Assembly (NCBI GenBank): GCA_036732045.1 | Contig: DAINDD010000002.1 | Coordinates: 16,089-80,088 of the forward strand | Length of the DNA: 64,000 nucleotides | DNA from: Chloroflexota bacterium | GTDB lineage: Bacteria > Chloroflexota > Dehalococcoidia > SM23-28-2 > RBG-16-64-32 | Direction of reading: 5' to 3' | Shown here: positions 4,413-45,495 of the stretch, in pieces | Position numbering within the stretch: the stretch's first letter is position 1 | Layout of the letters: each line of letters begins with the position of its first letter | Translations under genes and position numbers: made by a program | The notes under the pieces: model-generated | Seen by the model: the letters and a program-made list of their open reading frames with translations, nothing else | Databases searched by the model: none | What the model was told of the DNA's origin: nothing

Positions 4413-4578
4413 ATCGGCGTCGCCACGAGCTAATTCCGGAATTCGACGTAATCCCAAAAACATAAAATTACCAAACGAACTCCCAGTTTTGCCCACTTTC
4501 CCCCATTTCGCCTCTCCAGTCGCACCCTTGCCCCTTATCCCTTTAACGGCTCCCACGGCCGTGCCATCATTTTCATAG

Positions 4579-4887: not shown

Positions 4888-4954
4888 CTCTCGGTGAGGT
4901 CTTTGGTCTTCCGGAAGGCTGGCCCTTTTTCGACCAAGAGCCCGACGAGGACGA

Positions 4955-7772: not shown

Positions 7773-7774
7773 CG

Positions 7775-8473: not shown

Positions 8474-8662
8474 CGATCCGCGCCCCGCACCCTCCAACCC
8501 CGTGACCCGGAGCACCACCCACACCCTCTAGCGGGTGCCTCGGGCTCGCCCGCGGCCGCGTCAGAATCAGAGTTGCTCGCTCACAACGTTGAGTAATCAT
8601 TGATGGGCAGCGGCTCCTTGTTGGCGTGCCGTTGAGACGCCCTGCGGGACACTCGTCTTGCG

Positions 8663-9043
8663 ATGGGTATCGGCAAGAAAGTGCTCCTGGTAGAGGACGA
8701 GGCGACTCTGCGCGGCATCATCACCCGGAACCTCGCCGCGCGGGGCCATACGGTCACGGAAGCTGCCAGCGCGCGGGAAGCCCTGGCGCGGCTGAGCGAG
8801 GCGCGCCCCAACCTGATGCTGCTCGACATCAGCCTGCCGGACCGCTCGGGTTGGGACGTCCTGCGCGAGATGCGCCGCCAGGACAAGAACGTTCCGGTGG
8901 TGATCACTTCGGCTGTGCGCGTAAGCCAGGAGCGGATTGATGAGTTTCGGCCGCTGGCGTTTCTCCCCAAGCCCTTTTCGCTGGAGGCTCTCCTGCGCAT
9001 CGTTGCGGCGGCGCGGCCAAAGGAAGGCGAGCTGGTTCCGTAA
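8663..9043 (+). CDS. single-domain CheY-like response regulator
   Basis: 126 aa, receiver domain only (VLLVEDE...LLDISLPDRSG...PKPF). Confidence 0.8.
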   Translation: MGIGKKVLLVEDEATLRGIITRNLAARGHTVTEAASAREALARLSEARPNLMLLDISLPDRSGWDVLREMRRQDKNVPVVITSAVRVSQERIDEFRPLAFLPKPFSLEALLRIVAAARPKEGELVP

Positions 9044-9345
9044 TGGATGATCCTGAGCTAGATGAGGTCTGCGCACCGCGACGGGCGGAGCGGACTCGCG
9101 CTGATCGACGAATCACGCTTGGCCAGGCCGAAGCACTTTTGCGGTCGGCTTGCCTAATGCTTCGCGAGAAGCCCGGCGCAACGGTCAGCACGATGACCGT
9201 GAGCTTACCCCTCGACGAAGATCAAACGACTGATTACCTCGAAGGCCTGACTGCTCGTCTTGCGAGCGAGTACGGTTTGCTCGCTGAAACCGCGGAAAGC
9301 GGACTTCACTTGAAGGTGCGACTGCTGAGGGTAGCAGCCGAGTGA
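9043..9345 (+). CDS. hypothetical protein (100 aa)
   Basis: Sits between the receiver gene and the permease. Stop overlaps the permease start (ATGA). Confidence 0.35.
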   Translation: MDDPELDEVCAPRRAERTRADRRITLGQAEALLRSACLMLREKPGATVSTMTVSLPLDEDQTTDYLEGLTARLASEYGLLAETAESGLHLKVRLLRVAAE

Positions 9346-11648: not shown

Positions 11649-12251
11649 TCAATACTCGACGACGACATCAAACGCCGAAAGCAGTGACATTGCCTCTGGG
11701 TAAGAGAATTTCGCCTTCTTAGCCTTGTTGGCGGTGAGATCGATCGCATAGCCTTTCGCGCCGACGAAGTTTGCACCGCTGAGGTTGGTGTGCAGAAACT
11801 TGGCGCCGGTAAAGTCGGTCCGCTGGCAATCAGCTCCCGTCAGGTCGGCTTCCGAAAAATCGACTTCCAGCCCGCTGCAGTTGGACAGTCTCTTGAGCCT
11901 GAGGCCAAAGAAGCTCGAGTAGTCCAGCGCACACCGGTCGAAGGCTGCGGAGAACAGTAGCCGATCAGTCTTTGTAGAGCCAACGACTGTCCAATCAACG
12001 CCGGCCAGTTTCGAGTCGAGAAACTCCACGTCCACGAACCGGCAGTTCGGCGCGCTGAGAAGGCTCAGGTCGCAGGCCATAAACTTGCAATTGGTGAACC
12101 GGCAGTGGGAGAGTGCAGCCTCCGTCAGGATGCATCTCTCGAACGTGCAAGAGTCGAAATCGCTGGATGTAATCCGGACGCCCGGCAATTCGGCGCCCTT
12201 GAAGGTTACTCGTATATGGTTCTGGTGGCTTTCGGACAGCTCCACAGACAT
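11649..12251 (-). CDS. pentapeptide-repeat protein, Qnr/McbG/MfpA-like
   Basis: 200 aa. Two blocks of A(D/N)LxG pentapeptide repeats and a Qnr-like C-terminus (EAMSLLSAFDVVVEY compared with Qnr ...ASLLMERLGIAVIG). GC is lower than the neighbours. Confidence 0.7.
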   Translation of the reverse strand: MSVELSESHQNHIRVTFKGAELPGVRITSSDFDSCTFERCILTEAALSHCRFTNCKFMACDLSLLSAPNCRFVDVEFLDSKLAGVDWTVVGSTKTDRLLFSAAFDRCALDYSSFFGLRLKRLSNCSGLEVDFSEADLTGADCQRTDFTGAKFLHTNLSGANFVGAKGYAIDLTANKAKKAKFSYPEAMSLLSAFDVVVEY

Positions 12252-12331: not shown

Positions 12332-13054
12332 ATGGTTCTCGGGAGGGTGGCTGAATCCCAGCGCGAGGAAGCGCCGCGTGTCCTTATCGTGGACGACGAC
12401 GAGTCGCTGCTCGCCGCCCTGGACCTGGCGCTGACGCGTCGCGGGTTCCGCATCGTCACGGCAAGGGAGGCCGGCGAAGCCTTCGGACGCCTGGAAGACG
12501 CCGGGCAAGTCGACTTGATAGTGCTGGACGTGATGATGCCCGGCATGGACGGCGTCACCCTCTGCCGCTTGCTGCGCGACAGGACGTCAACGCCGATGCT
12601 GATGCTGACCGCCCGCGACGCCGTCGCTGACCGCATCGCGGGACTGGAAGCGGGAGCAGACGACTACTTGCAGAAGCCGTTCGACCTGGACGAGCTGGTC
12701 GCGCGGCTGCTGGCGCTGCGCCGACGGGCGCTTCGGAACCAGGGCCCCGAAGGCGTCGAGCGCACCTACGAAGACATCACGCTGGACTCGCGCACCTGGT
12801 CGGCGCGCCGGGCCGGCCGGAACCTGGGCTTGACACCGACGGAGTTTCGCATCCTGGAGCAGTTGCTGCAGTCGCCGGAATCCGTGCGCAGGCGTGAGGA
12901 CCTGATGCGCGCGATTTGGGGAGAGAACTGGGTGGAGGCGGATTCCGGCACGCTGGAGGTGCACATCGCCAACCTCAGACAGAAACTGGAGCGCGGCGGT
13001 GGCTCGCGGCTGATCCACACGATCCGCGGCGTCGGCTACGTGCTGAAAGCGTAA
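12332..13054 (+). CDS. OmpR-family response regulator
   Basis: Receiver + trans_reg_C (VLIVDDDES, DVMMPGMDG, GVGYVLK). Confidence 0.9.
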   Translation: MVLGRVAESQREEAPRVLIVDDDESLLAALDLALTRRGFRIVTAREAGEAFGRLEDAGQVDLIVLDVMMPGMDGVTLCRLLRDRTSTPMLMLTARDAVADRIAGLEAGADDYLQKPFDLDELVARLLALRRRALRNQGPEGVERTYEDITLDSRTWSARRAGRNLGLTPTEFRILEQLLQSPESVRRREDLMRAIWGENWVEADSGTLEVHIANLRQKLERGGGSRLIHTIRGVGYVLKA

Positions 13055-13057: not shown

Positions 13058-14458
13058 ATGTCGTTGCGGCTGCGGCTGACGTTCCTCTGCGTGGCCCTGG
13101 TGGCGGTCGTCATCGCCGGGTTCGCCGTGACGACGTATTTCATAGCACGGCACCGGATCTACAGCAGCTTCGACGATAGCCTCACCGCGCAGGCCAACGC
13201 GATCCTGGGGCTGCTGCCGGCCGGCACGCTCTCGGAGCCGCTGGTGCAGGGCCGGCGCCTGGAACTCGATCAGCAAGCGGCCGCAGGGGCGCTCTTCCAG
13301 ATCAGGACGACCGACGGCAACGTGCTCTACTCTTCCTTCCGCGGCTCGCCTGCACTGCTGCCGCGGAGCAAATCGCTCGATGTCCAGGCGTTCTTCGAAG
13401 GCAACGTTGCCGGTGGGCATTTGCGGTTCCTGTATCTGCCCGTCGACACACCGGACCACAACGGCGGCAGCATTGAGGTGGGCCGCTCAACGAACGAGAC
13501 GTTCGAAGCTCTATCGGAGATGCTGTACGCGCTTGTGGCGGGCAGCGTGCTTGCGCTGTTCCTGACGTTTGTGCCTGCCTACTACATCGCTGGACGGGCC
13601 CTTCGCCCGATCCGCGATGTCTCGCGCCTGGCCCGGCGGATCGAGCGCACCGGCGACTTCAGCCAGCGGTTGCAAGACCGTAAGACGAGCGACGAGACGG
13701 GCGAGCTAATCGCGACGTTCAACGAGATGATCGAGCGCGTCGACCAGACACTCGTCGCGCAGACGGAGTTCCTCGCCGACTCGTCCCACGAGATGCGTCG
13801 TCCGCTGACGATCCTCCGCACTAACCTCGACATCTTGCGCGATCCGGGGCTGCCCGCCGCCGACCGGGCGGCCTGCCTGGAGCGCATGTCCCGAGAGGCA
13901 CACGCGATGAGCGCCCTCGTCGGCGATCTCCTGCTCCTGACCCGCGACAAGACGCAGTCGTTGCAGCGCGTTCACGTAGATTTCTCGCGGCTCTGCGCAG
14001 ATGAGGTCTCGCGCATAGGCTTTGCGGACGGACAAGCGCCCATCGAACCGGACATCGAGCCGGGGCTGGTCGTGATCGGCGACGAAGAGCGGCTGCGCCA
14101 GGTGGTGAAGAATCTGCTCGAGAATGCGGTGAAGTACACTCCGAAAGACGGCCAGGTCCGCCTCCGATTGCACGGCGACGGCGACAACGTCCGTCTCGAA
14201 GTACAGGACACGGGCATCGGCATCCCGGAGGCCGAGCTGGCGCGCATCTTTGACCGCTTCTATCGAGGCACCGAGGCCCGCTCGATGCACGGTGAAGGCG
14301 TCGGGCTTGGCCTGGCGATCGTCAAGTACGTTGTCGAAGGCCACGGCGGTTCGATCAGTGCGTCCGCATCGCCGGGCGGCGGAGCGACGTTCGCTGTAGT
14401 GCTGCCGCGAGGGCCGGTGGTGTCAGAACCTCTTACGGATTTGTTGGCCGTCTCTTAA
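13058..14458 (+). CDS. sensor histidine kinase (TM + HAMP + HisKA + HATPase_c)
   Basis: H-box SHEMRRPLT, N-box LLENAVKYT, G-boxes DTGIGIP and GVGLGLAI. Start is 4 nt after the RR stop. Confidence 0.9.
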   Translation: MSLRLRLTFLCVALVAVVIAGFAVTTYFIARHRIYSSFDDSLTAQANAILGLLPAGTLSEPLVQGRRLELDQQAAAGALFQIRTTDGNVLYSSFRGSPALLPRSKSLDVQAFFEGNVAGGHLRFLYLPVDTPDHNGGSIEVGRSTNETFEALSEMLYALVAGSVLALFLTFVPAYYIAGRALRPIRDVSRLARRIERTGDFSQRLQDRKTSDETGELIATFNEMIERVDQTLVAQTEFLADSSHEMRRPLTILRTNLDILRDPGLPAADRAACLERMSREAHAMSALVGDLLLLTRDKTQSLQRVHVDFSRLCADEVSRIGFADGQAPIEPDIEPGLVVIGDEERLRQVVKNLLENAVKYTPKDGQVRLRLHGDGDNVRLEVQDTGIGIPEAELARIFDRFYRGTEARSMHGEGVGLGLAIVKYVVEGHGGSISASASPGGGATFAVVLPRGPVVSEPLTDLLAVS

Positions 14459-14566
14459 TGCTTCCTTAGGGTTTGGAAACAGCCTTCGCCCGTAACCTTC
14501 AATTGAGGCTTCCCTCGTATCGTTATAGCCTCTGAACAAATGGCTGAGGAGCAGGGAGGGGCTGGT

Positions 14567-15712
14567 ATGAAAGTACCCCCAGCGGCCGTCTACTTCCCGG
14601 AGGAAGACAAACCGCAGATCGCCGCACGCATCATCGAATGTCTGGAAAGCGGAGCACTGACGCTCGGCAAGTACGGGCGCCAGCTGGAGGAAGAGTTCGC
14701 GCGGCTCTGCGACGTCCCTTACGCCGTCGCCGTCAACAGCGGCACCAGCGCGCTGGAGATCATCCTGCGTGCGATCGGCGTCGAAGGGCGCGAGGTGATC
14801 GTGCCCAGCAACACCTTCTTCGCCACGGCGGCCGCGGTCCAGCATGCCGGCGGCCGCGTGCGCTTCGCCGATTGCGACCCGGACACCTTCGCGCTCGACG
14901 TGCAGAGCCTGCGCTCAAACCTGAACGCAAATACGGCGGCCGTAATCCTCGTCCACATCGGCGGCATCATCACGCCGCGCATCCGCGAGATCGAGAAGAT
15001 CTGCCGGCAGGTCGGCGTGCCGCTGGTCGAGGACGCGGCCCACGCGCACGGCTCGACACTGGAAGGCCGCCCGGCGGGCAGCTTCGGTCTGGCGGCGGCG
15101 TTCTCGTTCTACCCGACGAAGGTGATGACCAGCGGCGAAGGCGGCATCATAACGACGCGCGACGAGGCGATCCACCGTGAAGCGATGATCTATCGCGACC
15201 AGGGCAAGGAAGGGTTCACCACCAACTACCACGTTCGCCTGGGTTACAACTGGCGGATGAGCGAGCCCCACGCCGTGATCGGCCTCGCGCAGATGGCGCG
15301 CCTGCCCGAGTTTATCGCGAGGCGACAGGAGATCGCGGCGGAGTACGACGCCGGCATCGGCGCCCTGCGCGACCACATCCGGCCCGTGCGGCCGACGCGT
15401 GGCTCCGTCAGCAACTACTACAAGTACATGGCGATGATCGACGGCGTCGACCGCGCCGACCTCAAGCGCACGATGCGCGAGCAGTTCGACGTCGGCCTGA
15501 GCGGCGAGGTGTACGAGACGCCATGTCACTTGCAGCCGATCTTCGCCCAGTTCCTGGACGGCCCGCTGCCCCAGGCCGAGAAGATCTGCGCGGGCCACAT
15601 CTGCCTGCCGGTCTCCGCCAAGATGACCCTTGAGGACGCGCGTTACGTGCTGACATCGCTGGGCGCGGCGCTTGAGTCGCTCAAAGCGACGCCCGTAGAG
15701 GTGGGAGGCTAG
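14567..15712 (+). CDS. DegT/DnrJ/EryC1/StrS-family PLP-dependent sugar aminotransferase (ArnB-like)
   Basis: Family signature around the PLP lysine (FSFYPTKVMTSGEGG). GGAGG RBS before the ATG at 14567. Confidence 0.9.
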   Translation: MKVPPAAVYFPEEDKPQIAARIIECLESGALTLGKYGRQLEEEFARLCDVPYAVAVNSGTSALEIILRAIGVEGREVIVPSNTFFATAAAVQHAGGRVRFADCDPDTFALDVQSLRSNLNANTAAVILVHIGGIITPRIREIEKICRQVGVPLVEDAAHAHGSTLEGRPAGSFGLAAAFSFYPTKVMTSGEGGIITTRDEAIHREAMIYRDQGKEGFTTNYHVRLGYNWRMSEPHAVIGLAQMARLPEFIARRQEIAAEYDAGIGALRDHIRPVRPTRGSVSNYYKYMAMIDGVDRADLKRTMREQFDVGLSGEVYETPCHLQPIFAQFLDGPLPQAEKICAGHICLPVSAKMTLEDARYVLTSLGAALESLKATPVEVGG

Positions 15713-15713
15713 C

Positions 15714-16661
15714 GTGCGAGTTGGAGTAACGGGAGCCTCCGGTTTCATCGGGTCGCACGTGGTCGACGCGCTTATCGAAGCTGGCCACGAGGTCGCCGTG
15801 ATCGATCTGCGCGCGCCGCACCGTCCCGACGTTGAGCACCGCGAGGCGAGCATTCTGGACAGCGCGGCGATGAATGATGCCGTCGCCGGCCTCGCCGCGC
15901 TCTTCCACCTGGCCGCCGTCGCCGACGTCAACGATGTCGTCGCCGACCCGGTCGCCGCGATCGAGCTTAACGTCACGGGCACAGTCCGCGCGCTGGAAGC
16001 GGCGCGCAAGAACGGCGTCAAGCGCTTCTTGCTGGCCAGCACGGTCTGGGTCTACTCCTCGATCCCGCCGATGGATGGGGACACCGTGGACGAGACCGCG
16101 CTCGTCGACCCGGCCGCCGTTCGTCACGTCTACACGACATCGAAGGTCGCGGCGGAGATGCTCTGCCACGACTACTGGAACATGCACAAGCTCCCGTTCA
16201 CAGTTCTGCGTTACGGGATCCCCTACGGCCCGCGCATGCGGTTCTCTCTCGTCATCCCGGTCTTCGTGCGCAAAGCCTTGCGCGGCGAGGCGCTGACGCT
16301 GAGCGGGGACGGCAGCCAGCACCGCAAGTTCGTCTACGTGGAAGACCTGGCGCGGGCGCACGTGCTCGCGCTGGGCGACGCGGCGCAGAACCAGACGTAC
16401 AACCTGGACGGCGCTGAGAAGATCAGCATTCTCCGCATCGCTGAGACCGTCCTCCGCCTGACCGGCGCCGACCGGCCGATCGAGTTCATGCCCGCCCGTG
16501 CGGGCGATTACACCGGCAAGGACGTTGTCAGCGAGAAGGCGGCGCGGGAACTGGGCTGGGCGCCGCAGATCGACTTCGACGAAGGAATGAGGCGCACTGT
16601 GCCGTGGCTGGTCGAGCGGATTCGCGCGGGGGAGGAGACGGCAGCGGCGACTCCGCGATGA
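15714..16661 (+). CDS. NAD-dependent epimerase/dehydratase (SDR, GalE/ArnA-decarboxylase-like)
   Basis: VGVTGASGFIGSHVV Rossmann motif, YxxxK (YTTSK). GTG start right after the upstream stop. Confidence 0.85.
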   Translation: MRVGVTGASGFIGSHVVDALIEAGHEVAVIDLRAPHRPDVEHREASILDSAAMNDAVAGLAALFHLAAVADVNDVVADPVAAIELNVTGTVRALEAARKNGVKRFLLASTVWVYSSIPPMDGDTVDETALVDPAAVRHVYTTSKVAAEMLCHDYWNMHKLPFTVLRYGIPYGPRMRFSLVIPVFVRKALRGEALTLSGDGSQHRKFVYVEDLARAHVLALGDAAQNQTYNLDGAEKISILRIAETVLRLTGADRPIEFMPARAGDYTGKDVVSEKAARELGWAPQIDFDEGMRRTVPWLVERIRAGEETAAATPR

Positions 16662-18727
16662 CGATGCTTCAACGGGCGCCGGAAGCGCGCCCCAAAGCGA
16701 CGGGCCCCCGCAGAATCGCCGTCGTGCCTGTCTTCAACGAAGAGCCCACCGTCGTTGGCGTTCTTGAAGAGCTCCTGACGCTGGTCGACGAGATCGTCGT
16801 CGTCGATGACGGCTCAACCGACCGCTCGCGCGAGGTGATCCTCGACTGGTCGCTGGGACGCCAGCACGTACACACGATCCTCTTCAACCAGAACCAGGGC
16901 CTCTCCTCTGCGTACTTCGCAGCGTTCCGGGAGATCGGCGCCAGGCTGCACGCCGGGGAGCTGGCAGGTGACGATCTCGTGATCACCGTCGACGCCGACG
17001 GCCAGCACGACCCGACCGACCTCGATCGCCTTGCGGCGCGCGTGACCGAGGACGGCTACGACGCGGCCATCGCCCGCCGTGACATGTCCGGTTACAGCTT
17101 TGTCAAGCGCGCCGGCAACGGCTTGCTTTCGGTTTGGGCGTCGGTCTGGGCGGGGACGCGCCTCTACGATGTCGAGTCTGGATTCCGGGTATTTCGCGCC
17201 GGCCCGCTGGTGGAGGCTCTGCGGTACTACCACGGCTTTCGCTACAGCGAGACGGTGGAGGTCGCCGTCGTCCTGCCGCGTCTCGGGTACCGCATCGCCA
17301 ACGACGTCAGCGTGCCGGTGCCGGTGCAGCGCTCGCGGACGCGGATCAGCGACGGCATTATCGATGCGCTGGCGATGATTGGCGCCTGGTGGCGCGTTGT
17401 CGCCGGACGGCACAAGCCGGCGGACATGCCGGCCTGGTCGATGTACGTCGTGCCGGTGCTGGCGCTGCTGGCGCTTCTCTTCGGCGCTGGCGATATCCTG
17501 GCTCATCGGCTCTTCCTTGCCTCCGACTCGATGCACAACTACGCGCACATCTGGTACCTCAGCGATCAGATCTTCCACCACGCCACCATCCCGATCCACG
17601 TCTCGTTGCTGGACAGCGGCAAGGCTGCGACGTTCCCCTACGCGATCGGGCCGTACCTAGCCGGGGCGTTGATCTACCCGATCTTCGGGAACTGGGCCGT
17701 GAGCCTGCTGATGGCGATCGCGGTTGTCGGCACGGTCTGGGCGGCGGGCGTCGTCCGGCCGGCCATGCGCGACCCGTGGCTCATCGCGCTGTTCGTGCTC
17801 AACCCCTTCTTCATCGATGCCGCGTTCAGTTTTCAGTTCGCGTCGCTCTGGTCCGCCCTCTTCTTCTTTCTGTTCGTCCGCGCGTTCGAGCGGCAACAGG
17901 CAGTGCCCGCGGCCCTGCTCCTTTGGCTCTGCGTTAGCAGCCAGCCGGTGATGGGATCGCTGGCGGCCGGCGTCTACGGGCTGGCGATTCTCGCCCTGCA
18001 CCGGGAGCGCTTTGGCCGGTTGCTGATGATCGGCGCGCCCGTCGGCCTCGCTCTAATCCCGATCTACTGGATGACGTTGATGACCCCGTCGCTCTCCGAC
18101 AACACGGCTGCCTTCGTGCGCAGTACGGCGGGCTCGATCGCCGCGCGCGGGACGTTCTTCGCCGCCCCGTTCGCCCTTAGCGCTGCGGCCCCGCTCCTGC
18201 GGCGCTACTACCGGCCGGCGTTGTCGTTCGGAGTCGTATCGGCGGTCGTCGGCGTGCTTTTTATGGGTGGGATCATCCGCTTCTACCGCTCGCCCAGCGG
18301 CTACTACGGCGTCCTGCACGACAGCAGCGACGTCTATGCGCAGTACTTCGCTTCGCCGGCATTTCAGGCTGGCGCGACGTACAGAGTGCTGGAGCCGAGC
18401 GAGCGCGAGGACGGGATGTACCGCTTTATCCAGCACCGGGCGGTGCTCTCCAATGAGTTCTTTACGGAAAGCACGATGTTCCGCAACTGGAGCACCGATC
18501 AGTACGGCTGTTACGCGGCGTACAAAGGGATTGACTACGTGGTTGTGGAGCGCGCCTGGGAGGAGCGTAGCCACCTGAACGAGGGCCACCTCTTGCAGTC
18601 GCTGGTCAGCAGCGGTAGCGCCAGCGTTTCTTACACCGATCCGGGCGGGCGCTTCGTGGTCTACAATATCCAACCGTTCGTCTCCGTACGGCAGAAGCCC
18701 GCGGCGCTCTCCGGGTGTTCGCTCTGA
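16658..18727 (+). CDS. GT2 polyprenyl-phosphate sugar synthase-like domain (ArnC/DPM1/GtrB type) fused to a large polytopic membrane domain plus a soluble C-terminal domain
   Basis: N-terminus IAVVPVFNEE...VVVDDGSTDRS...VDADGQHDP (GT-A, DxD). Then about 10 predicted TM helices and a roughly 150-aa C-terminal soluble part. Start ATG overlaps the epimerase stop. Confidence 0.8.
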   Translation: MTMLQRAPEARPKATGPRRIAVVPVFNEEPTVVGVLEELLTLVDEIVVVDDGSTDRSREVILDWSLGRQHVHTILFNQNQGLSSAYFAAFREIGARLHAGELAGDDLVITVDADGQHDPTDLDRLAARVTEDGYDAAIARRDMSGYSFVKRAGNGLLSVWASVWAGTRLYDVESGFRVFRAGPLVEALRYYHGFRYSETVEVAVVLPRLGYRIANDVSVPVPVQRSRTRISDGIIDALAMIGAWWRVVAGRHKPADMPAWSMYVVPVLALLALLFGAGDILAHRLFLASDSMHNYAHIWYLSDQIFHHATIPIHVSLLDSGKAATFPYAIGPYLAGALIYPIFGNWAVSLLMAIAVVGTVWAAGVVRPAMRDPWLIALFVLNPFFIDAAFSFQFASLWSALFFFLFVRAFERQQAVPAALLLWLCVSSQPVMGSLAAGVYGLAILALHRERFGRLLMIGAPVGLALIPIYWMTLMTPSLSDNTAAFVRSTAGSIAARGTFFAAPFALSAAAPLLRRYYRPALSFGVVSAVVGVLFMGGIIRFYRSPSGYYGVLHDSSDVYAQYFASPAFQAGATYRVLEPSEREDGMYRFIQHRAVLSNEFFTESTMFRNWSTDQYGCYAAYKGIDYVVVERAWEERSHLNEGHLLQSLVSSGSASVSYTDPGGRFVVYNIQPFVSVRQKPAALSGCSL

Positions 18728-20733
18728 TGATCAAGTCCGCGTTCGGCGCTGCCAGCGATCTGCTCCGGCTCCTGCAGTCGGCGCGAGTGCGGCGCTACCT
18801 GGCGCTCACGTTCTTCGTCGATGCAGGGCTCGTCTTCGTCCTGCTTGTCGCCATCCAGTCCTACCTCCCGGAGCAGTACGGAGCCAGCGAGGCGCTCGCC
18901 GGCTACGTGCTGGCTGCGTACGGCGCAGCGAAGCTCGCAGGGCAGCTCGGCGCCGGCTGGGTGATCGACCGCGTCGGCCCGAGGCGGGGCCTGATCGCTG
19001 GACTTTGCCTGACGGGCGCAGGCCAGGCCACGATGATTCTCGGCATCGTGCAGCCGGAGGCGGTAATACCGGCGGCGCTTCTCTACGGCCTTGGTGGTGC
19101 GATGATCTGGCCGTCGGCCTACGCGCTGGCAGCTGGAGAGTTCGAGGAGAGTGAACGGGCGCGGCTCAGCGCGGGCATGACGGTAACGACGGGCGTTGCT
19201 CTGGCGACGGCGCTGTGCCTCGGCCTGGCGCTGCCGGCGAGCTTCCCGTACGCCGCGGCGATCGCAGTCTGCGTCGCTTGCACGGTTGGTGCTCTGGCGG
19301 CTGCGCGCAGCTTCCCGGCCGCCGCCGCGCGGGCCGACGAGGCGACGCGTGACGCTCGCCGCCAGCTTCTCGAATCAATCCGGGACATCGTTTCTGCGCG
19401 GCGGGTCGCTTTCTCGCTGATCATTCTCTTGCAGGCGGCCATCCTCGGCGCGCTGCTGGCGATCTTCCGCAGCTACGGCCGGGAGACGCTGCAGGTTTCG
19501 CTGCGAGAAGAGATGCTGATGCTGCTGCCCGCCGGGGCGATCGGCGCTGGGGCGGTTGTACTTGGCGGCCTGCTGGCTGACCGCTTCGGCCGCATACCTG
19601 TTCTGGGCAGCGGCTACCTGCTAGCCACGTTCTCGATTTGGGGACTCTCCACGACCACCGATCACAGCGCCGTTGTACCGCTGGCCGCTCTCTGCGCCGC
19701 CGGGCTCGGCCTCGCCTTGCCGTGTACGAGCGCGCTTTCGCTCGACCTTTCGCGGAGCGCCGGCACGGGCACGTTGCTTGGTTGGTTCCTGACGATGGAG
19801 GGCGCCGGACACGTGATCGGACCGGCCGCCGGAGCTTGGGTGAACCACAAGGGCGGCTCCGCGCCGGTGTTCTGGCTCGTTGGTGGACTCGCGGCGGCGA
19901 TCGCCGCCGTCGCACTCGTGCCGCCGATCTGGGCGCGGCGGCCCGACGTGGAGCCTGTACGCCATCGTCTTCGGGCGCTGCTCTCTGGCACCGCGAAGGG
20001 AGCGCTTGTCTTCAGTCTTGGCTTCCCGGTAATTGCGACGTACTTTGCGTGGGACCCTGGCTCGCAGCTCTACGGTGACATAATCACGCACGGTCCACGT
20101 GACCGCATGGAGGTCGCCATCACGTTCGATGACGGGCCGAACGACCCCTGGACGCTACGCATCGCCGACAAGCTCGACCAGTACAGCGTGAGAGGCACCT
20201 TCTTCATCGTCGGCCAGAATGCCGACGTCCATCCGGAGATCGTGCGGAACCTGGCGCAGCGCGGCGAGTTGATTGGCAACCACTCGTACCGGCACCGCAA
20301 ATCGGACGCCGTGACCCAGCTTGGCTACGGGGAGCTGTGGCGGGCCGAGACCGCTATCGCGCATGCAGCGGGCGTCTGCCCGGCCATTTACCGCCCTCCC
20401 AACGGCTTCCATACGCCGTGGCAGCTGCACACGGTGGCGAGGCACGGGATGAAGACGGTGACCTGGGACGTAATACCGCGTGACTGGAAAGACCCGCCGT
20501 CCGACGTGATCGTTAGCCGGGTGCTCGATTCGGTGCAGCCAGGTTCGATCATCCTCTTGCACGACGGCGACGACACGAACCAGGGCACTGACCGCTCGGC
20601 CACGCTGAACGCACTGCCCGGCATCATCGAAGGCCTGCGCGCCAAGGGCTACGACATCGTGCGACTCGATCAGTTGTTGTCCATCCAACCGTACTTGCCG
20701 ACGTGCGACGGATTGCAGGCGGTAAACTCATGA
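18715..20733 (+). CDS. MFS transporter fused to a CE4 (NodB-homology) polysaccharide deacetylase domain
   Basis: About 12 TM MFS N-terminal portion. C-terminus has NodB motifs TFDDGP, GNHSYRH, and ILLHDG. Confidence 0.8.
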   Translation: MFALMIKSAFGAASDLLRLLQSARVRRYLALTFFVDAGLVFVLLVAIQSYLPEQYGASEALAGYVLAAYGAAKLAGQLGAGWVIDRVGPRRGLIAGLCLTGAGQATMILGIVQPEAVIPAALLYGLGGAMIWPSAYALAAGEFEESERARLSAGMTVTTGVALATALCLGLALPASFPYAAAIAVCVACTVGALAAARSFPAAAARADEATRDARRQLLESIRDIVSARRVAFSLIILLQAAILGALLAIFRSYGRETLQVSLREEMLMLLPAGAIGAGAVVLGGLLADRFGRIPVLGSGYLLATFSIWGLSTTTDHSAVVPLAALCAAGLGLALPCTSALSLDLSRSAGTGTLLGWFLTMEGAGHVIGPAAGAWVNHKGGSAPVFWLVGGLAAAIAAVALVPPIWARRPDVEPVRHRLRALLSGTAKGALVFSLGFPVIATYFAWDPGSQLYGDIITHGPRDRMEVAITFDDGPNDPWTLRIADKLDQYSVRGTFFIVGQNADVHPEIVRNLAQRGELIGNHSYRHRKSDAVTQLGYGELWRAETAIAHAAGVCPAIYRPPNGFHTPWQLHTVARHGMKTVTWDVIPRDWKDPPSDVIVSRVLDSVQPGSIILLHDGDDTNQGTDRSATLNALPGIIEGLRAKGYDIVRLDQLLSIQPYLPTCDGLQAVNS

Positions 20734-21641
20734 GCCGCCGAGTGCTCGTAACGGGCGGCGCAGGGTTCATCGGCTCGCACGTCGCCCAGAGGCTGTACTC
20801 GCTCGGCTGGGATACGCACGTGTTAGACAGCCTGGCGACCGGTGATCGCGCCAACGTCCCGGCCGGCGTGCCGCTGCACATTGCGGACATCCGGGCCGAA
20901 GGAGAACTGCTGGCGGTCCTCCGCACAGGCTACGACGCGATCGTGCACTGCGCGGCCCAGACGAGCGTTGAGCGCTCGATGAAGGATCCCGAATTCGACC
21001 GCGAGGTAAATGTTACCGGTACCCGTCACCTGCTCGTAGCCGCGCGCGAGACCGGCGTCGGTCGCTTCGTGTTCATCTCGTCTGGAGGCGCGATTTACGG
21101 CGAGACTGCGGAGCCCGCTACGGAGGCCAGCGTCCCGGCGCCGCGCAGCTTCTATGGAATGCACAAGTACGTGGCCGAGGAGTTCGCGCGCGCAGCGGGT
21201 GTTCCGTTCGCGATCCTGCGCCCGTCCAACGTCTACGGCGCGCGCCAGCGTTCAGACGCCGAGGGTGGGGTTCTGTCGATCTTCCGCGAGAGTCTTATGG
21301 CCGGTCTGCCGATCGAGCTCCACGGCGACGGTCGGCAGGTACGCGACTTCGTCTATGTGGACGACATCGTCGATGCGGTCGTCCTCGCGGCAGACACACA
21401 GGCGGACGTGATCTGGAACGTCTGCAGCGGCGTCGCGACGACGGTCAGTGAAGCCGCGCGCATCATCGGCGCGGAAATCGGCTGCGATCCGGTCATAGAG
21501 CGGAAGCCGCGCCGGGCGGGGGACATCGACAAGTCGCTGCTCAGCCCGGCCCGCATCCTCGCGACCGACGCTTGGGGGCCGCCCGTTGCCCTCGACGCGG
21601 GGCTGCGACGGCTCGCTGCGGACGCTTCCGCCGTTGGTTAG
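20730..21641 (+). CDS. NAD-dependent epimerase/dehydratase (UDP-sugar 4-epimerase-like)
   Basis: VLVTGGAGFIGSHV, YGMHKY (YxxxK). ATG overlaps the upstream stop (ATGA). Confidence 0.85.
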   Translation: MSRRVLVTGGAGFIGSHVAQRLYSLGWDTHVLDSLATGDRANVPAGVPLHIADIRAEGELLAVLRTGYDAIVHCAAQTSVERSMKDPEFDREVNVTGTRHLLVAARETGVGRFVFISSGGAIYGETAEPATEASVPAPRSFYGMHKYVAEEFARAAGVPFAILRPSNVYGARQRSDAEGGVLSIFRESLMAGLPIELHGDGRQVRDFVYVDDIVDAVVLAADTQADVIWNVCSGVATTVSEAARIIGAEIGCDPVIERKPRRAGDIDKSLLSPARILATDAWGPPVALDAGLRRLAADASAVG

Positions 21642-22536
21642 CTAACGGCTGGCAGCGGACTTAGCCAATCTGCCAGCAGCGCGATCACGGCCAGCATTGT
21701 CGCCAGCCAGTGCACCCGCCGGATGTCGGCCCGGTCGCTGATTGATCGCCGCGACGAGTAGCGCAACCGACAGCGCGGAGAGCAGGCCGGGTGACCCACA
21801 GGAGGGCCACAACGCCAGCGCCAGCAGGTAACCCCACGGCAAGCGACGCCCAGCAGAGCAGCCGCGCCAGGGTCTCGCCGAGAGATGCCACCAGTCCCCG
21901 CGCGCCGAGCTGGCGGTCGCTCTCGATATCGATCATCGTGCCAGCGAGGTCGACGGATACGACGAGCGGCAGGCCGATGACGTAGGCTAGGCAGTAGCTG
22001 CGACCGATACTGGTGGACGAGCTCGAATGCGGCGATGGCCAGCGATGGGCAGGGCGAACCCAGAACGGAAGCCAGACGAAAGCTGTGCCCTTCAGCCGAG
22101 CGTTAGAGGCGAAGCCACGCGGGTGCCGACCGCTCCAAGTGCGACGAGGCGTGGCCCGAGCGGTAGCGCCAGCGCCAGCCCCAGGCCGGTCAAGACCAGT
22201 GCGAGCTCCAGGGCGAAGGGGGGCTGACGAGGCCGGGCGGGTAGCGCTTGCCATGGCATGGCGATGGCGTCGAGACGGCGGCCACAGTAGTCGTTGTGGA
22301 CGCCGATCGCCATCTGCGTGGCCAGCACGGCGAGCAGGTAGGGCGCGAGCTGGCCAGCGGGCGCCGCCATCGGCCGCTATGGTCGCGAAGGCCGTCGTCG
22401 CGAGCAGGACCATCAGGATCGGCGGCAGTGGGAACAGCTCGACGAAAGCGCGAAGGGCATATGTAGCTGGCACCGGCTGGAGGCGATGTACGTCGGTACC
22501 GCTGGATGGACGCATCGCAGCACTCTTCCGCCGCAT
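21642..22536 (-). pseudogene. UbiA-family polyprenyltransferase, disrupted by frameshifts
   Basis: The NDxxDxxxD-type motif (HNDYCGRRLDAI...PWQALP), a downstream DxxGDRAAG-like motif, and a TM-rich N-terminus lie in different reading frames (ORF-track pieces 22092-22370, 21642-21842 and 21685-22536). Confidence 0.4.
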
Positions 22537-22753
22537 TCTATGCCCGGATGAGCGCTTCGGACCATGGCCTCGATGATCGGCGGCCCCGGACGTCCTTCGA
22601 GCAACGTGAGGCTAGCTACTGGCGCCTGGTCGTCGCGAAACCCACGATCGGCAGGCCGAACCGGTTGACCACATGCGGCCCACCCAGGCCTATCGACGCA
22701 GCGAATGCGCGCGACCATACTTTCCAGAGAGACCGTCGCAAAGGGGAGGAACC

Positions 22754-23178
22754 GTGTCACTACACGCGGTGAACGTAAAGCTGCGCCATCAGCGCATCCT
22801 GGGCCAGAAGGCGGTCGATGAATTCACCAACGCCTTCGGGACGTGCACGAACATCATCCAGACCGTCGTCATCATTGTCTGGACGGCGACAAATGCGATT
22901 GGGATCATCTATAACTGGGATCCATACCCATTCATCCTCCTGAACCTCGGCTTCGGCGCGCAGGCCTCTTACGCGGCGCCGCTGATCCTGATGGCCTCCA
23001 ACCGCTCCGCCGAGTAGGACCGGATGACGCTGGAGCACGATTCCGAAGAGGTGGATGCGATCCTCCAGATCCAGGACCGCCAGATCGAGCTTCTGAAGCG
23101 ATCAAGGCCGAGACGGACCTTGTCAAGCAGCTCGTGGACCAGGCGACTAAACCCGCCTCAGACGCACAGCCCCGCTAG
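22754..23178 (+). pseudogene. DUF1003-family membrane protein with an in-frame TAG and a C-terminal frameshift
   Basis: WDPYPFILLNL...APLILMASNRSAE then TAG (23015-17), then in frame DRMTLEHDSEEVDAILQIQD. The coiled-coil tail (IKAETDLVKQLVDQ...) is in another frame. AGGGGAGG RBS before a GTG start. Confidence 0.5.
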
Positions 23179-23331
23179 GCGCTTCGTTGACAGCGTGCGG
23201 CCACAGACCTACGCTCGCCGTGATTTACCTCCCGCAGACGAGGGAATGATCTGAAAGCGGTCGGGGCGCGAACTAACTTCCATGATGATGACGGCATCGC
23301 AGCCGGCCTTCGACGCCGCGATCCGCTGGCC

Positions 23332-23823
23332 ATGGAAGCGCTATACGATCGTCTGAGCCGCCAGGCGTTTGGCCTGGCGTACCGGATGCTTGGCGATAGC
23401 CAGTCGGCCGAGGACGTAGTCCAGGACGCGTTTCTTTCGGTTTGGCGCGCGGTTGAGCGGATCGACGCCTCGCGCGGCAAGCTCCAGTCGTACGTCCTGA
23501 CTGTCGTACACCGCCGCGCGATCGACGTGCTGCGCGCCCGCAAGGCGCCGGTCGTGCAGTTGGGAGCCGACGACGCCCCGGACATTCGCGACGAACGGAG
23601 CGACGTTCTGGAGACGGTTACCATGGTGCTCGACGCGCAGGCCGTTCGCAATGCGCTGGGTGCCTTGCCCAAGGAACAGCGAAGGGTGGTGGAGATGGCG
23701 TACTTCCAGGGCCTGACGCACGTCGAAATCGCCGAAGGGTTAGCGCTTCCGCTCGGCACCGTGAAGAGCAGGCTGAGACTGGCTCTGGATAAGATCCGCG
23801 CCGCTCTGTCTGACCGGATATGA
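23332..23823 (+). CDS. ECF (sigma-70 family) RNA polymerase sigma factor
   Basis: Region 2 (AEDVVQDAFLSVW) and region 4 (VEMAYFQGLTHVEIAEGLALPLGTVKSR) motifs. Confidence 0.85.
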   Translation: MEALYDRLSRQAFGLAYRMLGDSQSAEDVVQDAFLSVWRAVERIDASRGKLQSYVLTVVHRRAIDVLRARKAPVVQLGADDAPDIRDERSDVLETVTMVLDAQAVRNALGALPKEQRRVVEMAYFQGLTHVEIAEGLALPLGTVKSRLRLALDKIRAALSDRI

Positions 23824-23826
23824 ACG

Positions 23827-24528
23827 ATGAGCTGCGAAGAGATCGACGAGCTGGCCGGCGCCTACGCGTTCGGGGCACTGCCCGATGCGCAACGCGCCGC
23901 AGTGGCCGCGCACCTCGCCTCCTGCGAGCGCCACCCGGAGATGCGGGAGCTCGAGGCTTTAGCCGCGAGCCTCGCGCTGGCCGCCGAAGAAATGGAGCCG
24001 CCGCCTGCGCTCGAGTCGCGGCTGATGGAGGCAATCCAGGCGGACAGGCGCGCCTCACAGTCCGCAACCTGCATTCTGATCTCGGTCCAAGGCAGCTTGT
24101 TCGATACGATTCGTGGCTGGTTCGCGAGTCCACCGTTGGGCTACGGATTGTCGGCCGCCCTGGCCGTTGCCGTTGTGGGCTTGCTGGCCTGGAACATCAG
24201 CCTGCAGGGCGGGTCTGCGGACCAGGTCGTCGTCAACGTGTCCGGCTCGGCATCCGGGCGCGTCATCTACCTGAAGGACGAGGGGCTGGCGGTGATGGAC
24301 GTGCGCGGCCTACCGGCCCTGCCCTCCGGCAAAGTTTACGAAGTCTGGTCGATGTCCTCCGGAAAGGCGACGCGCCTTGGCCTGCTGAACACCACCGCGA
24401 GCGGGGAGGCGAGCGCCTCGATGCCGTTCAACGATTCCGGCGTGAACCTGGTCGCCGTGACGGTGGAGCAGGCGCCGGGCGTCGACCAGCCGACGACCTC
24501 GCCGGTCTTCAGCGCCGCCTTCTCGTAA
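23827..24528 (+). CDS. anti-sigma factor (RskA/ChrR-like zinc-finger anti-sigma with one TM)
   Basis: Directly after the sigma gene. N-terminus ELAGAYAFGALPD...HLASCERH, a single TM, and an extracytoplasmic C-terminal domain. Confidence 0.75.
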   Translation: MSCEEIDELAGAYAFGALPDAQRAAVAAHLASCERHPEMRELEALAASLALAAEEMEPPPALESRLMEAIQADRRASQSATCILISVQGSLFDTIRGWFASPPLGYGLSAALAVAVVGLLAWNISLQGGSADQVVVNVSGSASGRVIYLKDEGLAVMDVRGLPALPSGKVYEVWSMSSGKATRLGLLNTTASGEASASMPFNDSGVNLVAVTVEQAPGVDQPTTSPVFSAAFS

Positions 24529-24680
24529 GGCGCCGCGGCCTCGCGACTGCTTTTCGCCAGTCGTTTGCAATATTCTTCACGCGCTGGTGATCTAGCGGCT
24601 GCATCTTCACGAAATACAAGCTGAAGATGCGGCCACGGCAACTGCCGTTGAGCCGGGAAACACCATAAGGAGGAGACTTT

Positions 24681-25988: not shown

Positions 25989-26017
25989 CCAACTGAACCA
26001 ATAGAAGGGACCGAGAG

Positions 26018-45485: not shown

Positions 45486-45495
45486 GTGGGGTTCG

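Follow-up and report, generated by a model that had tools for sequence, protein, structure and literature searches.

In a soil Chloroflexota genome, five open reading frames (ORFs) lie on the same strand at positions 14567-21641 of the window, i.e. the 64-kb stretch of DNA analysed here. They encode, in order, a DegT aminotransferase, a first short-chain dehydrogenase (SDR1), a GT2 domain fused to a polytopic domain, an MFS domain fused to a CE4 domain, and a second short-chain dehydrogenase (SDR2). The ORFs span 14540/14567-15712, 15714-16661, 16658-18727, 18715/18727-20733 and 20703/20730-21641 (all +). Together with two genes upstream, the features are:

12332..13054, + strand: OmpR/PhoB-type response regulator, candidate operon regulator (Pfam Response_reg and Trans_reg_C)
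13058..14458, + strand: sensor histidine kinase (Pfam 2CSK_N, HAMP, HisKA and HATPase)
14567..15712, + strand: DegT-family PLP sugar aminotransferase (Pfam DegT_DnrJ_EryC1, PF01041, 4e-101)
15714..16661, + strand: SDR1, extended short-chain dehydrogenase with T/Y/K triad (Epimerase, PF01370, 9e-53)
16658..17350, + strand: GT2 domain of the polyprenyl-phosphate sugar synthase type, cytoplasmic (PF00535)
17351..18277, + strand: amphipathic helix and polytopic GT-C-fold membrane domain
18278..18727, + strand: C-terminal alpha/beta domain of the GT-C, predicted extracytoplasmic
18727..19917, + strand: 12-helix MFS domain, candidate flippase for a lipid-linked sugar (PF07690, 3e-43)
19954..20052, + strand: 13th transmembrane helix, taking the chain to the opposite side of the membrane (AF2 helix, aa 414-446)
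20080..20733, + strand: CE4 (NodB-type) metal-dependent N-deacetylase, predicted extracytoplasmic (PF01522, 3e-23)
20730..21641, + strand: SDR2, GalE-type UDP-hexose/HexNAc 4-epimerase (Epimerase, PF01370, 1e-56)

The start at 14567 is a conserved ATG, before which stands GGGAGGGG. GC3 is high for all five ORFs (0.80-0.88). The first junction is a 1-nt gap, the second and fourth are ATGA overlaps and the third is a TGATG overlap; given this gap and the three start/stop overlaps, the five genes are translationally coupled. The ORF coordinates, the junctions and the Pfam domains thus bear out the five co-directional, overlapping genes described in the initial annotation. The two fusion proteins that it pointed out are likewise real, and they recur: full-length GT2 fusions turn up in >120 protein clusters (identity down to 43%), and the MFS-CE4 fusion in ~40 (identity down to 52%). 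The arrangement is far beyond chance, with synteny across nine related genomes and a core kept in two phyla. The operon combines two unusual fusion proteins with a previously unclassified membrane glycosyltransferase family.

We compared 37 related loci, namely: 17 from Chloroflexota and 20 from Actinomycetota (Acidimicrobiia), all from MAGs, counting partners no more than 10 kb away from the GT2 orthologue. The aminotransferase, which the initial annotation expected homologous loci to retain, is present at 32/37 loci, SDR1 at 31/37, and CE4 and GT-C at 34/37 each. Loci that lack the aminotransferase are mostly at contig ends; one related locus has the GT2-GT-C and CE4 genes and neither aminotransferase nor SDR1. 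SDR2 occurs at 13 of the 17 Chloroflexota loci and at none of the 20 from Actinomycetota, and no MFS was found at any Acidimicrobiia locus examined. Among relatives, the fusion combinations are GT2-GT-C, MFS-CE4, GT2-7TM-CE4, SDR1-GT2-7TM-CE4 and SDR1-TM-CE4-like, while other relatives encode the same domains as separate genes. Such Rosetta-stone fusions, in differing combinations, tie the same parts to one another.

At 14/17 Chloroflexota versus 0/20 Actinomycetota loci, an orthologue of the response regulator immediately precedes the aminotransferase in the same orientation, and the histidine kinase is found at 15/17 Chloroflexota loci. The regulator best matches the NCBIfam models for PhoB, MtrA and CseB; the PmrA model gives 165 bits, and none of these reaches its cut-off. 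For the kinase, the CztS/SilS/CopS subfamily of heavy-metal sensor kinases is the top NCBIfam match (223 bits; cut-off 293). The kinase and aminotransferase genes are 108 nt apart, and a search of this gap found no terminator-like site. In Chloroflexota, the two proteins probably switch the operon on.

The aminotransferase contains the Schiff-base lysine motif SFYPTKVMTSGEGG. Its NCBIfam matches are PseC (238 bits), the LegC family (213 bits), DesI (177 bits) and ArnB (148 bits), none reaching cut-off, and its PDB matches are perosamine synthetase (175 bits), QdtB (161 bits) and ArnB (120 bits). That PseC/LegC and the perosamine synthases are its nearest relatives suggests C4 amination. Of the ArnB-like enzyme for a 4-amino sugar that had been proposed, the DegT assignment stands, and the '4-amino' part is not established by matches below every curated cut-off.

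SDR1 has T. maritima GalE (142 bits) and human UXS1 (138 bits) as its top PDB matches. It carries ASTVWVY in place of the STSEVYG of UXS/ArnA and the STDEVYG of RmlB, and S-T-V-W-V-Y stands at the T-S-E site of decarboxylases or the T-D-E site of 4,6-dehydratases. The motif is identical in 25 of 27 orthologues from both phyla; the remaining two vary at one flanking residue. SDR1 is without the acid/base residues of either enzyme class, which counts against the proposed sugar-making route, as it leaves the aminotransferase's keto-sugar substrate without an explanation. SDR2 matches T. thermophilus GalE (203 bits), T. maritima GalE (194 bits) and 6wj9/6wjb (150-153 bits). The earlier description of both as epimerase/dehydratase/decarboxylase-like is therefore correct as to the SDR fold and fails for the dehydratase and decarboxylase signatures, both lacking in SDR1, while SDR2 is a plain GalE; neither is ArnA-like. 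A search for a formyl- or acetyltransferase found none in the window and none conserved at the related loci.

Pfam places Glycos_transf_2 at aa 40-169 of the 707-aa GT2 fusion and gives no match on the other ~450 aa. The GT2 domain matches ArnC (49.5 bits) and PpgS (43.5 bits) in NCBIfam, followed by AglJ, PgfS and dolichyl-P-hexose transferase, and a profile search of the PDB returned ArnC (52 bits), DPMS (41.5 bits) and GtrB (39 bits). Its invariant residues include D51, G52, S53 and D55 (DDGSTD motif), T110, D112, A113, D114, G115, Q116 and H117 (TxDADGQH motif), and D171, E173, S174 and G175 (DxESG motif). In Acidimicrobiia, GT2 is a standalone gene of 260-300 aa with 52-60% identity. With ArnC, DPMS and GtrB as closest relatives, its assignment as an ArnC/DPM1-like polyprenyl-P-sugar synthase is upheld. 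The PgaCB/IcaAB/NodCB pattern likewise pairs a CE4 with a GT2 that bears a large membrane domain, and the CE4 domain gives 132 bits with the NodB model. The cluster might then make a secreted, partly deacetylated poly- or oligosaccharide like PNAG (PgaC/PgaB) or Nod factor (NodC/NodB), with the GT2 fusion as a processive synthase-translocon and the MFS as exporter. We consider this very improbable, as the GT2 domain reaches just 27 bits on PgaC/IcaA and 19 on NodC, matches PF00535 and not the processive-synthase families, and is followed by a membrane domain with a GT-C fold and no cellulose- or chitin-synthase channel; the conserved aminotransferase also argues against it.

The membrane domain, for which GT-C features had been suspected, indeed has the GT-C fold, with ArnT as best fold match and a conserved Asp in loop 1; the family has no Pfam model. 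It could alternatively be an oligosaccharyltransferase-like protein glycosyltransferase, in which case surface proteins (S-layer or membrane), and not a glycan or lipid, would be glycosylated; we regard this as quite unlikely.

In the 672-aa MFS-CE4 fusion, MFS_1 covers aa 29-365 and Polysacc_deac_1 aa 461-581 (Pfam), and the AF2 model places 12 MFS helices across aa 23-401. The top PDB sequence match of the MFS, near full length, is 6s7v (E 4e-7, 33 bits), which we take to be LtaA, but the NCBIfam LtaA flippase model gives 46 bits, far under its 450-bit cut-off, and structural comparison indicates a generic MFS. Relatives with 49-52% identity encode the MFS as a separate gene immediately upstream of the CE4 gene, and from this adjacency and the fusion the MFS is a candidate flippase. 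The 13th helix follows a basic loop (RRPDVEPVRHR), and where relatives encode the two parts separately, their CE4 of 251-253 aa opens with an equivalent single N-terminal anchor helix. The CE4 domain also has a conserved Cys pair (GVCPA and a C-terminal YLPTC). The 12+1 helices, this anchor and the Cys pair predict an extracytoplasmic CE4.

All catalytic motifs of the CE4 domain are kept (TFDDGP, NHSxxH, RxPNG, DW and LHDG). It scores 148 bits on PdaB and 132 bits each on PgdA and NodB (NCBIfam), matches 7y51/7fbw (133 bits) and Bc1960 (124 bits) in the PDB, and aligns with Bc1960 in Foldseek at TM 0.89 and 33% identity; it matched neither the NCBIfam ArnD model nor any ArnD structure in the PDB. 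The initial annotation had offered it as the ArnD counterpart, and had named a grouping with peptidoglycan or chitin deacetylases unrelated to ArnD as evidence against its pathway. The CE4 assignment holds and the ArnD one does not, since at 131-148 bits the domain falls among the deacetylases of peptidoglycan and chitooligosaccharides and those of the NodB type. An unlikely alternative keeps the same donor pathway and has CE4 deacetylate the acceptor polymer (e.g. peptidoglycan GlcNAc, as PgdA) or the transferred sugar, with the MFS as an ordinary solute transporter or exporter merely anchoring CE4. The proximity to the peptidoglycan GlcNAc deacetylases Bc1960, PgdA and PdaB and to NodB (120-148 bits, TM 0.89) fits it, as do the generic MFS fold and the Acidimicrobiia that do without an MFS. 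Against it, CE4 is present at 34/37 loci and repeatedly fused via membrane segments to donor-making enzymes, as in GT2-7TM-CE4 and SDR1-GT2-7TM-CE4, and the CE4 sequences of both phyla make up a single orthologous group (48% identity across 219 alignment columns, the terminal Cys among them). Moreover, deacylation of a lipid-linked donor sugar has precedents in ArnD and NaxD and in the M. tuberculosis deacetylase.

Membership in the Arn pathway was also considered. A true orthologue making and transferring L-Ara4N would agree with ArnC as the best named GT2 match, ArnT as the best GT-C fold match and the ArnB match of the aminotransferase. However, SDR1 is without the Ser/Glu pair of ArnA/UXS decarboxylases, a formyltransferase, an ArnD match and ArnE/F are all absent, the aminotransferase is nearer PseC, LegC and perosamine synthases, and the operon proteins miss every curated NCBIfam equivalog cut-off, with scores 4-10 fold under. 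Such membership is effectively refuted, and we give it next to no credence.

Taken together, the kinship of GT2 and the conserved aminotransferase/SDR1/GT2/CE4/GT-C core indicate that an Arn-like logic holds. Of the Arn-like pathway first proposed, this logic survives, supported also by the upstream two-component system, and the Arn chemistry does not (SDRs, CE4, no formyltransferase). With a probability of roughly two in three, an amino sugar is built on a lipid carrier, flipped, deacetylated outside the cell and attached to the envelope, by a variant of three-component (GtrB/flippase/GT-C) glycosylation with Arn-like sugar tailoring. The operon probably encodes a self-contained system, likely induced by a signal, that adds the amino sugar, carried on polyprenyl phosphate, to some extracytoplasmic part of the envelope. 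In the cytoplasm, SDR2, SDR1 and the PLP aminotransferase would convert UDP-HexNAc to an amino-HexNAc nucleotide, the weakest step. By homology to ArnC, DPMS and GtrB, GT2 would load the sugar onto polyprenyl phosphate there. The MFS domain may then flip the lipid-linked sugar; the generic fold, the weak LtaA link (33-46 bits) and the MFS-less Acidimicrobiia loci count against this step. CE4, held outside by the 13th helix, would strip the N-acetyl group to leave a free cationic amine, a chemistry to which its motifs point; a CE4 of the peptidoglycan/chitooligosaccharide type could instead act on acceptor or transferred product, which counts against the donor as substrate. Finally, the GT-C, judged by its fold and loop-1 Asp, would move the sugar from lipid to acceptor outside the membrane.

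The closest functional analogues are the Arn pathway and the mycobacterial arabinogalactan-galactosamine (GalN) pathway. With Arn (PmrHFIJKLM, Gram-negative lipid A aminoarabinose), the operon shares a DegT aminotransferase, a polyprenyl-P-loading GT2, a CE4-superfamily deacylase, a putative flippase step and a two-component system directly upstream, analogous to PmrAB for arn. It differs in having no ArnA (neither decarboxylase signature nor formyltransferase), an MFS instead of the ArnE/F SMR pair, fused GT2 and GT-C, and Chloroflexota/Acidimicrobiia rather than proteobacterial hosts. Furthermore, its PgdA/NodB-like CE4 is predicted outside the membrane, whereas ArnD acts at the cytoplasmic face. 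In Francisella (FlmF2/NaxD/FlmK) and Bordetella (LgmABCD), an ArnC-like GT2 makes Und-P-HexNAc, whose acetyl group is removed while the sugar is still lipid-linked; an ArnT-like GT-C then passes the sugar on to lipid A, which makes the surface cationic. These systems are not known to include fusions or an aminotransferase, and their deacetylases are of the YdjC family and not CE4 as here. Ppm1 of M. tuberculosis (Rv2051c), in which a polyprenyl-P-mannose synthase is joined to a polytopic membrane part, is a precedent for such a fusion with a large membrane domain, but that domain is Lnt-like and not a product-consuming GT-C.

In Mycobacterium and Corynebacterium, arabinogalactan galactosamine involves the Rv3634c epimerase, PpgS with Rv3632, and the GT-C Rv3779; lipid-linked HexNAc is flipped and deacetylated, and the GT-C then transfers the free amino sugar to the wall polymer, the flippase and deacetylase genes being unidentified (PMC9671496). 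The operon would share the GalE-type epimerase, the GT2 polyprenyl-P-HexNAc synthase, flipping, deacetylation and GT-C transfer. In this case, candidate genes for flipping and deacetylation lie within the operon, the mycobacterial pathway has no aminotransferase or SDR1, and the parts are not orthologous (PpgS model 43.5 bits versus a cut-off of 370). Three-component systems (GtrA/GtrB/Gtr*, CsbB/GtcA/YfhO and pentofuranose) comprise a cytoplasmic polyprenyl-P-sugar synthase, a flippase, whose family varies between systems, and an outside GT-C (PMC11127046). Unlike these, the operon has a GT-C family without a Pfam model, joins synthase and GT-C in one polypeptide, fuses its candidate MFS flippase to a deacetylase, and adds dedicated nucleotide-sugar tailoring enzymes.

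The operon consists of five same-strand ORFs with strong GC3 bias at 14540/14567-21641, in a window of Chloroflexota (class Dehalococcoidia) MAG DNA with a GC content of about 65%. Its first gene starts at 14567, as initially annotated, with a conserved ATG and GGGAGGGG just ahead of it. The junctions between the ORFs are, in order, a 1-nt gap, ATGA, TGATG and ATGA, which indicates that the five genes are translationally coupled. Every domain named in the initial annotation was recovered using Pfam and NCBIfam. The genes of the operon and of the two-component system 5' of it are as follows:

12332-13054 (+), response regulator
13058-14458 (+), histidine kinase
14567-15712 (+), DegT aminotransferase
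15714-16661 (+), extended SDR (SDR1)
16658-18727 (+), 689-aa protein with an N-terminal GT2 domain, its other ~450 residues matching no family in Pfam or NCBIfam
18727-20733 (+), 668-672-aa protein with MFS_1 followed by a CE4 domain (Polysacc_deac_1)
20730-21641 (+), extended SDR (SDR2)

A sigma-70 promoter scan of 11.5-23.4 kb returned no site, using a consensus that may not apply to the host phylum, and terminator-like sites do not exceed the shuffled expectation. Rfam finds nothing near the operon; its sole match in the window is a tRNA gene at 38338-38409 (-). Around the stop codon of the histidine kinase gene (14456-14475) there is a short element, CTTAATGCTTCCTTA(A/G)GG, that is conserved in three of the related loci described below (L001, L004 and L002). 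In these it contains the 8-bp palindrome CCTTAAGG, which reads CCTTAGGG in the window. Lying ahead of the aminotransferase gene, the element may be a regulator-binding or processing site.

Both fusions proposed for the operon are real. Full-length homologues of the GT2 fusion (about 690 aa) recur in >120 protein clusters, down to 43% identity and all from Chloroflexota-type sources, and the MFS-CE4 fusion recurs in about 40 clusters (650-685 aa, down to 52% identity). The GT2 motifs D51-G-S-x-D55, T110-x-D-A-D-G-Q-H117 and D171-x-E-S-G175 are invariant in an alignment of 29 homologues. In a whole-protein profile search against the PDB, the GT2 part matches ArnC, DPMS and GtrB structures, while the rest of the fusion has no match. 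The highest NCBIfam scores of the GT2 domain are to ArnC (49.5 bits vs. a cut-off of 529; 52 bits vs. ArnC structures) and PpgS (43.5 bits vs. a cut-off of 370 for the equivalog NF058614), and both fall short of the equivalog level. With ArnC, PpgS, AglJ, PgfS, DPMS and GtrB as its top NCBIfam and PDB matches, the domain belongs by sequence to the polyprenyl-phosphate-sugar synthase clade, so the ArnC/DPM1-like assignment made earlier holds at the clade level only. Processive synthases score far lower, namely: PgaC at 27 bits and NodC at 19 bits. Family scores of this kind, together with the fold, lead us to reject a PNAG- or Nod-like polymer synthase, a reading that we consider highly improbable.

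The polytopic part of the protein gives no Pfam match even at E<=1, and it was resolved by structure search alone, as a GT-C fold like that of ArnT, STT3, Pmt and ALG with a conserved acidic residue in extracytoplasmic loop 1; this answers the question raised earlier about its family. D290, nine residues past the first transmembrane helix in the motif FLxxDSxxNYxHVWY, is invariant among the 29 homologues, as are C618 and C687 in the C-terminal soluble part. The GT2 domain lies ahead of TM1 and lacks a signal or TM segment of its own at the N-terminus. With GT2 thus predicted to be cytoplasmic, the D290 loop and the Cys-bearing C-terminal domain would lie outside the membrane. The domain is thus predicted to be a GT-C transferase of the type found in three-component systems, having an extracytoplasmic active site. 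Its family is small: a profile recovers 275 of 1.84 billion representative proteins at E<=1e-3, some fused (~650-720 aa) and others standalone (~420-460 aa). Since Pfam has no model for it and sequence comparison detects no link to known GT-C families, it appears to be unclassified.

AglB/STT3-like scores would favour a protein as acceptor, and the C-terminal domain is similar in fold to 3vu0 despite missing the WWDxG motif of STT3, AglB and PglB. Neither the sequence nor its set of invariant columns contains a WWD-like motif, and we regard a protein acceptor as rather improbable.

Below 52% identity, relatives of the MFS-CE4 protein are unfused MFS proteins of 420-457 aa. In five related loci whose GT2 fusion is 55-58% identical to that of the window (L005-L009), the MFS protein and a 251-261-aa CE4 protein are encoded by adjacent separate genes, with one anchor helix at the N-terminus of the unfused CE4. 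In the AlphaFold model of the window's fusion (pLDDT 76.9), 12 MFS helices (aa 23-401) are followed by a basic loop, a long 13th helix (aa 414-446) and the CE4 domain. MFS termini are normally cytoplasmic, and the 13th helix would thus carry the CE4 domain to the extracytoplasmic side. This predicted location is in keeping with a Cys pair conserved in CE4 (GVCPA and the C-terminal YLPTC).

All five CE4/NodB catalytic motifs (TFDDG, H[ST]xxH, RxPxG, DxxDW and LxHD) are present. Among 22 fusion proteins T470-F-D-D-G-P475, N522-H-S-x-x-H527, R560-x-P-N-G564, D590-W591 and L615-H-D-G618 are invariant or nearly so. The Pfam score of the domain is 82 bits vs. a cut-off of 23, its NCBIfam scores are 148 bits to PdaB, 132 to PgdA and about 132 to NodB, and its fold matches Bc1960 with a TM-score of 0.89 at 33% identity. 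Sequence and model thus place it with peptidoglycan and chitooligosaccharide deacetylases. There is no ArnD model among its 19 NCBIfam matches at E<=0.01 and no ArnD chain among its PDB matches at E<=1e-3; the NodB-type domain of the initial annotation is confirmed, and its likening to the ArnD deformylase is not. A CE4 domain that works on the acceptor or on the transferred product in place of the donor is an unlikely alternative in our estimate, and we favour the lipid-linked donor as its substrate.

The MFS domain is well supported as such (PF07690, 148.5 bits vs. a cut-off of 33.4) and has the 12-helix MFS fold. Its best solved relative is 6s7v, a weak match at 33 bits, which we take to be the glycolipid flippase LtaA. 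On the NCBIfam LtaA flippase model it reaches 46 bits vs. a 450-bit cut-off, and Foldseek of the MFS-CE4 model returns generic MFS neighbours only (VMAT2, YajR, NorA and DgoT; TM 0.7-0.8). The modelled structure thus lends no support to a lipid-flippase assignment. The MFS domain is the sole flippase candidate, a role that we infer from context only, namely its fusion or adjacency to CE4.

Among the soluble enzymes, the aminotransferase keeps the PLP lysine (SFYPTKVMTSGEGG). It scores 238 bits on PseC, 213 on LegC and 177 on DesI, all below the curated cut-offs, and 147.8 bits vs. a cut-off of 631 on the ArnB model NF008658; against the PDB, perosamine synthetase (175) is ahead of ArnB (120). 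It is thus a DegT-family enzyme but not an ArnB equivalog. SDR2, at 203 bits to T. thermophilus GalE, is clearly a GalE-type 4-epimerase by sequence. SDR1 retains the Thr/Tyr/Lys triad, and its scores on GalE and UXS1 are much alike. Its S-T-V-W-V-Y aligns to S-T-S-E-V-Y of UXS1, and the motif ASTVWVY is conserved in 27/27 orthologues from two phyla, being identical in 25 of them. Decarboxylases have T-S-E at this position and 4,6-dehydratases T-D-E. Since SDR1 reads T-V-W, ArnA-type chemistry is unsupported; of the functions envisaged for the two enzymes, the extended SDR fold and one epimerase stand, and SDR1 lacks a decarboxylase or dehydratase signature. On the NCBIfam UDP-4-keto-pentose/UDP-xylose synthase model SDR1 scores 56 bits vs. 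a cut-off of 294. PDB entry 8VR2, an SDR, scores 134 bits against it, and a literature search on this code returned nothing relevant.

An ArnA-like formyltransferase, for which a search had been suggested, was not found: there is no formyl- or acetyltransferase domain in about 45 ORFs scanned over the 64-kb window, and no such family, nor any further conserved gene family, is present in the 37 related loci. The N-acetyl group for CE4 most plausibly derives from a HexNAc precursor. ArnA (both of its domains), ArnB, ArnC and ArnD all fail as assignments. No ArnE/F-type genes are present here, and the GT-C domain resembles ArnT (GT83) in fold only. True Arn orthology is rejected on the family scores and on the fold, and is effectively excluded. 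What survives of the original proposal is the analogy, in which the operon would work like Arn without being Arn.

In order to place the operon in its genomic context, one genome per species was scanned, which yielded 37 loci with close GT2 orthologues (17 in Chloroflexota and 20 in Actinomycetota, mostly Acidimicrobiia). Gene presence was scored within 10 kb of the GT2 orthologue by domain-wise tblastn/blastp in place of single-linkage clustering, in which the fusions join all the core genes into a single component. The aminotransferase, whose conservation had been proposed as a check, is kept in 32/37 loci, SDR1 in 31, CE4 in 34 and GT-C in 34. Most absences are at contig ends; in one locus (L014) the aminotransferase and SDR1 are truly absent. 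In 14-15 of the 17 Chloroflexota loci, an OmpR/PhoB-type regulator and a HAMP histidine kinase lie directly upstream on the same strand. The window's kinase is closest to the heavy-metal sensor subfamily, though below its cut-off.

The same domains are arranged differently in Acidimicrobiia. There, GT2 (260-300 aa, 52-60% identical) and GT-C (about 28% identical, with the same motifs) are separate genes, CE4 has a ~7-TM N-terminal region attached, and the loci contain no MFS, no SDR2 and no two-component system. Other combinations include a 651-aa GT2-7TM-CE4 protein (L027, 24-1979 (+)) and a 950-aa stop-free ORF joining SDR1, GT2, a multi-TM region and CE4 (L017, 2373-5225 (+)). In two Acidimicrobiia loci (L018, 14289-16391 (-); L023, 1661-3982 (-)), a run of several TM segments links SDR1 to a CE4-like domain whose metal-binding and catalytic residues are lost (e.g. 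TIDTDN for TFDDGP, and no HSxxH). This paralogue has the look of a pseudo-enzyme, serving as a membrane tether for SDR1. Deeper Chloroflexota have a second GT-C paralogue, which stands alone and shares 26-29% identity with the domain of the window (L010, L011, L015 and L032 at about 3050-5700; also L012, L013 and L033). It adjoins a long CE4 protein with a ~7-TM N-terminal region, and both genes are found a short way upstream of the two-component system. That these five or six domains have been fused and split repeatedly in two phyla argues strongly for a single membrane-associated pathway. A half-MFS origin of the ~7-TM region was considered by comparing long CE4 proteins of Acidimicrobiia and deep Chloroflexota with the window's MFS C-domain and TM13, and was rejected; hhalign aligned the CE4 domain only, and the 7-TM region beside the GT-C paralogue has no detectable MFS homology.

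Taken together, these data suggest a pathway in which a UDP-HexNAc would be tailored in the cytoplasm by SDR2, SDR1 and the aminotransferase, which is the weakest step. By homology, the GT2 domain would then load the sugar onto polyprenyl phosphate, and context points to the MFS domain for flipping the lipid-linked sugar. CE4 would N-deacetylate it outside the membrane, as its motifs and topology suggest for this presumed substrate, and the GT-C domain, judging from its fold and conserved Asp, would pass it to the acceptor. Transcription may be controlled by the adjacent two-component system, given its position. The net effect would be the addition of a sugar with one or two free amines, i.e. 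a cationic decoration. A bolder reading, to which we give a probability of roughly 0.35, is that MFS-CE4 is a coupled 'flip-and-deacetylate' machine which, with GT2-GT-C as donor synthase and consumer on opposite membrane faces, makes up a minimal two-protein membrane module, switched on by a dedicated two-component system, that places a free-amine, possibly diamino, sugar on the Chloroflexota envelope. If so, the module would be a functional counterpart of Arn or Dlt-type surface-charge remodelling in little-studied phyla.

The operon follows the logic of three-component GtrB/flippase/GT-C systems, in which flippase families vary and flippase activity is generally inferred (PMC11127046). In function it may come closest to the arabinogalactan-GalN pathway of mycobacteria and corynebacteria, which has a GalE-type epimerase and the GT2 enzyme PpgS. 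Flipping and deacetylation of the lipid-linked HexNAc are unassigned in the mycobacterial pathway (PMC9671496), whereas here both activities have candidates, MFS and extracytoplasmic CE4, in one fusion protein. A literature search for GT2/GT-C fusions plus a deacetylase found no description of such a system. The fusion of GT2 to its own donor-consuming GT-C would force a cis-membrane cycle of synthesis, flipping and transfer, which makes it attractive for structural work. On this evidence, soil Chloroflexota and Acidimicrobiia may use an amino sugar, under two-component control, to remodel their envelope, which would bear on how that envelope is built and on how these bacteria resist cationic peptides and metals; the existing labels 'glycosyltransferase family 2', 'MFS transporter' and 'peptidoglycan deacetylase' overlook the pathway.

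Several other features of the window were observed. Convergent with the operon is an apparently disrupted UbiA-family prenyltransferase gene (21685-22536 (-) with 22092-22370 (-)), split over two frames and with its first Asp motif degenerated to NDYCGRRLD. An intact 324-aa orthologue is present in L004 (11460-12434 (-); PF01040, 91.6 bits), with a partial match in L001, and what the window shows is either a pseudogene or an error in the assembly of the MAG. In other three-component systems, polyprenyl-phosphate-ribose donors are made by UbiA-type enzymes (PMC11127046), and the gene may once have been part of a second donor pathway. A DUF1003 gene at 22673-23254 (+) is broken by a stop codon following ...LILMASNRSAE, with its remainder in the next ORF; its intact 148-aa orthologue (PF06210) is at 12404-12850 in L004. 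A possible second envelope- or metal-stress module occupies 23332-28884 (+). Its products are an ECF sigma factor and an RskA-type anti-sigma factor, a DUF4331 and a TPR protein, and a 509-aa protein containing a NicO-like nickel-transporter segment; the sigma/anti-sigma pair is downstream of the operon in L004 too.

On the other side of the operon, 6186-11579 resembles a potassium or osmotic sensing cluster, with a DUF4118 (KdpD-like) histidine kinase overlapped by an OmpR-type regulator, an orphan receiver domain (8663-9043) and a 745-aa APC-family permease with a weak K_trans match. A pentapeptide-repeat protein (11649-12251 (-)) is encoded between the permease and the operon's two-component system. 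Farther away, 43184-55485 (-) is a leucine/branched-chain catabolism-type cluster (acyl-CoA dehydrogenase, luciferase-like monooxygenase, two enoyl-CoA hydratases, an HMG-CoA-lyase-like protein, biotin carboxylase with BCCP, and carboxyltransferase), followed by a DtxR/FeoA-type repressor. Finally, a 550-aa ORF at 1189-2841 (-) has no Pfam match at E<=1e-4 and a strong coding bias (GC3 0.88).
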